Positions 42 through 481 of a stretch of 529 nt of DNA are shown piece by piece. The first letter of the stretch is position 1. The number at the start of each line of letters is the position of its first letter. The notes under the pieces are model-generated. The model had not been told where the DNA came from. It ran no database searches and saw nothing but the letters and a program-made list of their open reading frames with translations. Made by a program: the position numbers and the translations under genes. Origin of the DNA: a phage; sequence record AF039882.1; one strand, 5' to 3'.

Positions 42-200
42 TTAACTGGAGGCGTGAAAAACGGGGAGCTGATCCCCGTCGGTTATCANGAGAAGTGGGC
101 AATTGTTACGCTTTGCCATTTCCCGCCAATCATCTTGCTGTCTAGACTTGCGATGCCGTANTAAAAACCGTTTATACCAGTGATTAAACCATCGTTTCAT
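42..200 (-). CDS. hypothetical small basic, Trp/Arg-rich protein (52 aa), apparently translationally coupled to the upstream ORF
   Basis: ATG at 200..198 overlaps the upstream TGA (199..197) as ATGA. GAGGGGG (plus-strand 205-211, read on minus) sits 4 nt upstream of the ATG. Hand translation: MKRWFNHWYKRFLXRHRKSRQQDDWREMAKRNNCPLLXITDGDQLPVFHASS, stop TAA at 44..42. About 11 Lys/Arg against 5 Asp/Glu. Absent from the ORF track (presumably below a length cutoff). Two codons contain N. Could instead be a frameshifted continuation of the upstream ORF if the read has an indel near 197-200. Confidence 0.35.
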   Translation of the reverse strand: MKRWFNHWYKRFLXRHRKSRQQDDWREMAKRNNCPLLXITDGDQLPVFHASS

Positions 201-382
201 AAATCCCCCTCGGGTAATCGATGCGTGATCTTCTCCTCTTCCCCGTAGGAATCGACCAAATGCTGATAATANCCATCGGNATCATAAATAACGCTATCAT
301 ACTCGCCCCGCTCGACCGCTCCCCGATTCTCCGGCGTATCGGGCANATAGAAAANGTCTACNATTGTGGTAGTTTTGGTCAC
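197..382 (-). CDS. hypothetical small acidic, Tyr-rich protein (61 aa counted from GTG at 382..380; true start uncertain)
   Basis: ORF from the supplied track. Enterobacterial-style codons (GAT, GAG, CGG, GGG). 14 Asp/Glu against 5 Lys/Arg, and 6 Tyr. No convincing Shine-Dalgarno upstream of the GTG; the frame stays open up to an in-frame TGA at 433..431, so the start may lie elsewhere or be obscured by read errors. Five codons contain N. The stop TGA (199..197) overlaps the ATG of the next minus-strand ORF. Confidence 0.4.
   Translation of the reverse strand: MTKTTTXVDXFYXPDTPENRGAVERGEYDSVIYDXDXYYQHLVDSYGEEEKITHRLPEGDL
205..211 (-). promoter_or_regulatory. Shine-Dalgarno-like GAGGGGG for the ATG at 200..198
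   Basis: Minus-strand sequence cccGAGGGGGatttATG read directly from the window; purine-rich motif with short but acceptable spacing to the start codon. Confidence 0.45.
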
Positions 383-400
383 AATAATTTTATTGCTCAG

Positions 401-419
401 TAATAACGCCCCGTTATTA
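401..419. repeat. perfect palindrome TAATAACG-ccc-CGTTATTA (8-bp arms, 3-nt spacer); candidate operator or hairpin
   Basis: Read directly: 401-408 taataacg is the exact reverse complement of 412-419 cgttatta. Lies in the AT-rich stretch 383-420, 19-37 nt upstream (in minus-strand terms) of the GTG at 382. A second weaker inverted repeat, caataa/ttattg (382-387 / 390-395), is adjacent. Confidence 0.45.
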
Positions 420-454
420 GTTGANGANTCTCAAAGATAGCGTTCGCAAGTGTN

Positions 455-481
455 GCCCTTAGATATCCCANCCGNGGCTTC
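455..481. other. probable polylinker or primer-derived junction sequence between insert and vector
   Basis: Clustered 6-bp restriction sites immediately before the vector match: EcoRV GATATC 462-467 and SacII-like CCGNGG 473-478, followed by EcoRI 482-487 and NcoI 487-492. Three N calls in 27 nt. The exact insert boundary cannot be fixed from sequence alone. Confidence 0.3.

Follow-up and report, generated by a model that had tools for sequence, protein, structure and literature searches.

The 529-nt stretch of DNA considered here, referred to in the following as the window, is a low-quality read with many Ns from a plasmid clone carrying DNA of phage T5. Its positions 4-470 match T5 at 96.1% identity in a blastn comparison (NC_005859 8887-9349, opposite strand), and according to the T5 annotation this match sits within the left terminal repeat, the first-step-transfer (FST) DNA with the pre-early genes. 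Neither the E. coli genomes nor the plasmids searched gave a blastn match to the window. The alignment to T5 yields no match past position 470, and positions 471-529 align locally with what we take to be the pUC18 sequence; this alignment scores 67, and shuffled sequences reach 39 at most. Two entries of the phage collection under the names 'Listeria phage LM 4-14-1' and 'Campylobacter phage A148' also contain T5-like pre-early sequence; both are probably mislabelled or contaminated. The features of the window are as follows (L001 denotes a comparison locus):

57-80, minus strand: intrinsic terminator with an 8-bp stem, a UCAGC loop and a subsequent U-run, annotated in NC_005859 and AY587007
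86-200, minus strand: ORF2, a basic, Trp/Arg-rich product of 37 aa, MKRWFNHWYKRFLVRHRKSRQQDDWREMAKRNNCPLL (alignment to T5; L001 5083..5196)
197-200, minus strand: ATGA stop/start overlap (ORF2 ATG at 200-198, ORF1 TGA at 199-197), kept in all ORF1-ORF2 junctions examined
205-211, minus strand: Shine-Dalgarno sequence of ORF2, GAGGGGG, with its GAGG core 7 nt before the ATG
197-401, minus strand: ORF1, identified as T5.017 (YP_006845.1), an acidic product of 67 aa (alignment to T5; L001 5193..5396)
358-372, minus strand: terminator-like hairpin CTACCACAATGGTAG with a T-run behind it, in ORF1 codons 10-17 (L001 5354-5368; weak fold, z about -0.8)
417-470, minus strand: 3' end of T5.016 (ending ...RATLENAIFEIVN before the stop), the cistron upstream of ORF1 (T5 annotation and alignment)
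471-529, no strand: badly read pUC18-type lacZ'/polylinker vector (M13-reverse region, EcoRI, SmaI/BamHI), by local alignment

Two small reading frames in the T5 pre-early region

When compared with the T5 genomes NC_005859 and AY587007, the read has four bases too many in 467 nt, and these errors altered the lengths of both ORFs, so that the caution over read quality voiced in the preliminary description of the window was well placed. That description located a pair of small ORFs at 42-382. Both ORFs are real, but their extents are ORF1 at 197-401 and ORF2 at 86-200. A spurious C at position 400 splits the ATG of ORF1, which truly reads 401/399/398, while its TGA stop occupies 199-197; because of this extra C, the ORF appeared to start from a GTG at 382 and to encode 61 instead of 67 aa. 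In ORF2, the N at position 89 is a spurious inserted base that shifts the frame past the tandem stops (TGA at 88-86, TAA at 85-83), and the product therefore has 37 aa and not the 52 aa (42-200) assigned to it before, of which the last 14 residues are translated terminator hairpin. The ATGA overlap at 197-200 and the GAGGGGG sequence at 205-211, both already recognized in the read, are found identically in the finished genomes NC_005859 and AY587007. The proposed charge difference between an acidic first and a basic second product holds as well: ORF1 has a pI of 4.4, a net charge of about -8 (-8.3) and six Tyr residues, and ORF2 has a pI of 11.3, a net charge of +7.7, three Trp and seven Arg residues. 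Nine ORFs of at least 20 aa are present in the window, and the size of the two ORFs by itself is therefore not beyond chance; we judge both to be real because of the comparative evidence.

Once the read errors are removed, ORF1 is identical (100%) to YP_006845.1. The PHROG 6973 profile matches it with an E value of 1.6e-40, residues 1-64 aligning with all 64 profile positions, and ORF1 is a member of this small family, which is restricted to the Demerecviridae. Homologues occur in 296 phage records across the Demerecviridae, including Eps7 and My1, and the 41 database homologues of the protein are all from T5-like phages. Its frame has a pN/pS of 0.17. In a structure model of high predicted confidence (pLDDT 93), ORF1 takes the shape of a long beta-ribbon of two strands with a pair of short helices as its cap, a fold without a relative in the PDB or BFVD. 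ORF1 had no Pfam, NCBIfam or PADLOC match at E <= 1 and no relative by sequence in the PDB, and a search of its profile against 1.84 billion representatives returned only a dozen matches, either small phage proteins or repeat-protein noise.

One promoter-like match (9/12) lies just upstream of ORF1 (L001 5422..5395); the region as a whole contains nine such matches, which is not above the 6.5 +/- 2.8 found in shuffled sequences. The hairpin at 358-372 is annotated as a rho-independent terminator in AY587007 (Hangzhou), a record in which neither T5.017 nor ORF2 is annotated; we consider this hairpin to be probably incidental.

ORF2: coding evidence, coupling and distribution

The N-terminal part of ORF2 is predicted to form a strongly amphipathic helix of aromatic and cationic residues (hydrophobic moment up to 0.76), followed by an Arg/Lys patch, and its conserved C-terminus reads (D/E)(D/E)WRExAKR(N/D)xCPL(L/F/I), with one conserved Cys; a transmembrane segment was not predicted for it. 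The T5 records NC_005859, AY543070, AY692264 and AY587007 all leave ORF2 unannotated. Orthologues are annotated as hypothetical proteins in oldekolle (YP_009857735.1), T5_ev219 (YP_013605744.1), EASG3 (EASG3_00017), slur09 (SLUR09_00026), STP-SP2 and TrudiGerster (bas27_0181, 33 aa). Searches with ORF2 gave no Pfam, NCBIfam or PADLOC match at E <= 1, nothing in PHROGs and no sequence relative in the PDB, and a query padded with in-frame residues found no candidate in a database of 5.8 billion proteins. Its absence from that database and from PHROGs indicates that most gene callers skip it. A relationship to ribosomal protein L34 was considered and dropped, as there is no Pfam match at all and Pfam presumably includes the L34 family. 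Likenesses to the arginine-rich motifs of lambda N and, in the CPLL tail, to a CaaX-like ending were dropped as unsupported.

Copies of ORF2 were traced by tblastn and with a degenerate DNA motif. The tblastn search found ORF2 in 63 records, in every one of which it is of full length and its frame is open. A degenerate scan for the C-terminal motif of ORF2 recovered only T5-like sequences from IMG/VR and metagenomes, including intact copies of ORF2 in five metagenome contigs, and it recovered none from 185,579 bacterial and archaeal genomes. Protein identity amounts to 78-89% within Tequintavirus and to 57-63% with the Eos and TrudiGerster versions.

Among 14 distinct close sequences, the variable columns fall on codon positions 1, 2 and 3 in numbers of 9, 4 and 13, and pN/pS in the ORF2 frame is 0.23. 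Of the five other frames, four have values of 1.1-1.8 and one, the antisense frame with shared third positions, has 0.37; all five contain stops. Between T5 on the one hand and Eos and TrudiGerster on the other, synonymous sites are saturated (pS 0.55-0.93) while pN is 0.19-0.35, and the ORF2 copies of Eos and TrudiGerster carry two different, independent in-frame deletions of 12 nt (four codons). The family is narrow (63 records, all from Markadamsvirinae and mostly at least 78% identical), and the selection signal hence derives mostly from the 14 close and two distant sequences. Together with the value for ORF1, these substitution patterns show purifying selection on both reading frames. A Ribo-seq or proteomic record of ORF2 translation was not found in the literature; a peptide as rich in Arg and Lys as this one would be almost undetectable after tryptic digest. 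Judged by its open frame, its pattern of substitutions and its in-frame indels, ORF2 is very probably a real protein-coding gene that the T5 annotations omit.

Each ORF1-ORF2 junction examined combines the ATGA overlap with an upstream Shine-Dalgarno sequence, in the forms GAGGGGGA, GAGGAGGA and GAGGATGG. This Shine-Dalgarno sequence and the ATGA are encoded by three extra codons at the 3' end of ORF1 that are found only when ORF2 is present, and the ORF1 tail next to ORF2 accordingly reads EGDL, EEDL or EDGL. A Shine-Dalgarno sequence is kept before ORF2 in all four upstream contexts in which it occurs; in phiP4 and SE8, for example, ORF2 has ATGA and AAGGTGG after a T5.015 homologue. The conservation of these signals supports the translational coupling of ORF1 and ORF2 that had been proposed from the read.

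The two genes are, however, not bound to occur together. ORF1 is present in 296 records and ORF2 in 63, and about 80% of the ORF1-bearing records are without ORF2. Where ORF2 is absent, ORF1 has 64 aa (ending ...RLPD), and TAATAA and the hairpin come directly after it; in phages with ORF2, ORF1 has 67 aa, and the same TAATAA-hairpin junction stands behind ORF2. It follows from this comparison that ORF2 is a precise indel of about 120 nt. Apart from the three-codon tail, there is no consistent difference between ORF1 sequences with and without ORF2. Conversely, ORF2 also follows three other upstream sequences, in each case without an ORF1 within 1.5 kb: a T5.015 homologue in phiP4 and SE8 (with an ATGA overlap), Eos45, and, in TrudiGerster, an unannotated ORF (again with an ATGA overlap). 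It is found with two different types of downstream terminator. On the evidence of this distribution, ORF2 is a separable accessory cassette for which T5.017 is no obligate partner. In the family at large, the position after ORF1 is a variable site of insertion.

The possibility that Eos45 is a cryptic ORF1 homologue, which would keep the pairing intact, was rejected (hhalign probability 0.8%; PHROG 12351; BLASTP identity 23%). In the Pectobacterium phage My1 (L044 1501-1903), the ORF of an unrelated acidic protein of 72 aa, My1_015, comes after the ORF1 homologue My1_016 and overlaps it. The 3' end of T5.015, GGTGGCGCAATGA, is a recurrent modular junction in the loci L038, L040 and L033, and the next gene, either ORF2 or bas27_0182, starts at its ATGA; this junction suggests recombination at gene boundaries in which the coupling would be preserved. 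An unannotated ORF ending ...NNTAGKHSQRLRFGNGFAMLIIIILILGAMAL likewise recurs in L033 (TrudiGerster, 1310-1495), in L043 (Eps7, 1256-1393), in L032 (Eos) upstream of Eos45, and in L053 upstream of ORF1. It combines a basic N-terminal part with a hydrophobic helix, its stop and the ATG of the next gene overlap in ATGA, and it spans a terminator-like hairpin whose pairing persists through different stem sequences. This ORF may be either a gene for a small membrane protein or a terminator/spacer module that merely looks translated.

Alternative readings of the gene pair and the terminator

Tight coupling of an acidic and a basic product invites the idea that T5.017 and ORF2 form a functional complex, either of the toxin-antitoxin kind or of an effector with its chaperone or inhibitor, in which the coupling would set the stoichiometry. 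The net charges are opposite and of like size (-8.3 and +7.7), the ATGA coupling is conserved wherever the two ORFs are adjacent, and most copies of ORF2 do come after ORF1. The distribution described above points in the other direction: most ORF1-bearing phages manage without ORF2, ORF2 stands behind three other upstream sequences without ORF1, and the ORF1 sequence is indifferent to its presence except for the three-codon tail. Neither protein matches a toxin-antitoxin or defence family in Pfam, NCBIfam or PADLOC. Furthermore, Annor et al. (2026; bioRxiv 10.64898/2026.04.02.716235) expressed the 17 annotated pre-early genes each alone and found seven of them to be toxic, 017 not being included among these, and the same study reports that hegG-017 can be deleted from T5. 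Hence, the analogy with toxin-antitoxin and other two-protein modules, which the preliminary description had drawn from gene architecture, is not supported, and we regard a complex as the basis of the arrangement as unlikely. The opposite charges are nevertheless compatible with complex formation in those phages in which T5.017 and ORF2 are both present.

In every case ORF2 comes last among the ORFs, and what follows it are the terminator and the non-coding repeat region. The terminator RNA has a fold energy of -12.9 kcal/mol, and its hairpin starts 5 nt past the ORF2 TGA. The spacing between stop and stem is conserved, either as TGATAA plus 2 nt or as TAATAA plus 4 nt, and in Eos the terminator hairpin takes in the last codons of ORF2. 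NC_005859 places ORF2 inside the iss feature (9140-10149), the annotated injection-stop region.

It should also be noted that the segment of about 110 nt past the first hairpin contains a conserved palindrome, AAATGAGAATCATTCTCATTT, in L006 (at about 3345-3365), L008, L031 and other Tequintavirus loci. In the relatives it lies downstream of the stop of ORF1 or ORF2, and it is absent from T5 itself. We take this palindrome to be Fur-box-like. The recurring unannotated ORF ending ...NNTAGKHSQRLRFGNGFAMLIIIILILGAMAL contains a stretch, AATCATTCTCATT, that is homologous to this palindrome.

The location of ORF2 within the broad iss feature and its abutment on the terminator, combined with its very short length and its missing annotation in the T5 records, could also mean that it has no functional product and that its sequence is kept as a cis-acting DNA or RNA element of the injection-stop/terminator region. 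We consider this very improbable. The changes in ORF2 are concentrated at third codon positions, pN/pS is low, and the peptide is kept in Eos and TrudiGerster in spite of saturated synonymous sites, with indels that remain in frame; the start codon and the Shine-Dalgarno sequence are kept in unrelated upstream contexts, and the locus has no match in Rfam. The ORF2 segment is, moreover, absent from most T5-like phages, and since we assume that these phages inject their DNA in two steps as well, it is not essential to the stop signal.

Alternatively, the act of translating ORF2 might matter rather than the peptide, with ribosomes that stop 5 nt before the hairpin modulating termination and read-through into the repeat region. 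Such a role would suit the tight and conserved spacing between stop and hairpin, and also the Eos hairpin that includes the last ORF2 codons. ORF1 shows the same spacing where ORF2 is absent, however, so that ORF2 is not needed for it. In addition, it is the amino acids of ORF2 that are under purifying selection, and its C-terminal motif hardly varies even between copies whose synonymous divergence is saturated. We therefore rate this reading, too, as very improbable.

That one protein of about 113 aa had been split by a sequencing frameshift, as was initially considered in view of the indel errors that the read does carry, is refuted. NC_005859 and AY587007 agree with the read at the junction, and all relatives examined keep two frames there. 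ORF1 and ORF2 are not fused in any of the 41 homologues, of which the longer ones are N-terminal mis-starts or frameshifted reads, and most phages have an ORF1 with a clean end at 64 aa.

ORF2 as a probable accessory pre-early gene and its relation to known systems

Taking the comparative evidence together, we consider it likely that the window holds the two cistrons at the end of the pre-early operon T5.012-T5.017, and that ORF2 is a genuine accessory cassette gene coupled to the preceding ORF without being an obligate partner of T5.017. The operon is transcribed from the first-step-transfer DNA towards the injection-stop region, with ORF2 as the terminal cistron of the T5.012-T5.017 transcript. 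Ribosomes would begin ORF2 at the ATGA, either re-initiating there or recruited by the Shine-Dalgarno sequence, and translation of ORF2 would be coupled to whichever ORF precedes it, through an ATGA overlap or a close stop together with the Shine-Dalgarno sequence. It would presumably take place in the first minutes of infection. The peptide may be dispensable and directed against the host or its defences, and it might bind an anionic target, be it nucleic acid, the surface of the inner membrane or an acidic host protein. Most likely, ORF2 encodes an accessory peptide of the pre-early phase that is directed at the host.

T5 has long served as a model of how phage DNA is injected in two steps and how the host is taken over. 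Recent studies of this phage, in which the '17' pre-early genes were cloned singly, a minimal-genome deletion mutant was constructed and transcriptome-wide CRISPRi-ART was applied, rely on the annotation of NC_005859. Because ORF2 is missing from this reference annotation, it is not among the '17 pre-early genes' that were cloned, deleted or targeted. A conserved, selected and coupled gene of 37 codons in the annotated non-coding injection-stop region means that the list of pre-early genes is incomplete. We tentatively put forward, as a possibility that we ourselves view with some doubt, that ORF2 is an overlooked 18th pre-early gene of T5 whose peptide is made in the first minutes of infection and has a host-directed or anti-defence activity of an undescribed kind. 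ORF2, with its Shine-Dalgarno sequence and ATGA, is probably still present in the 'four-gene' minimal T5, so that this 'minimal' phage may hold one gene more than stated; if so, part of the effects ascribed to A1, A2, hdi and 009 could involve ORF2. The sequence itself, ORF1 and the annotation of ORF2 in some relatives were known already, and what is new is the proposal of ORF2 as the missing T5 gene and a confident model of the ORF1 fold. We see this as a modest but concrete correction to the annotation and not as a new kind of system.

Among known proteins, the hypothetical 37-aa proteins of oldekolle, T5_ev219, EASG3 and slur09, and the 33-aa protein of TrudiGerster, are the direct counterparts of ORF2: they are its orthologues and, like it, come last before the terminator. 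Type II toxin-antitoxin modules such as RelBE, MazEF and ParDE likewise consist of two small overlapping cistrons, the upstream one acidic and the downstream one basic. In contrast to these modules, with which there is no homology, the downstream product of the T5 pair has only 37 aa, the two partners are distributed independently of each other, the upstream gene can be deleted in T5, and both genes lie inside the operon of a lytic phage and apparently not in an autonomous, autoregulated cassette.

A different comparison is provided by the phage 'morons' and by small early host-takeover peptides, for example T4 Stp, lambda Kil and CIII, and T7 Gp0.4. ORF2 is not known to bear sequence similarity to these peptides, it has neither a promoter nor a terminator of its own, and it depends on being coupled to the cistron in front of it. 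It resembles both groups in that it is very small, presumably expressed early, patchy among close relatives, and inserted exactly at a gene boundary beside a terminator.
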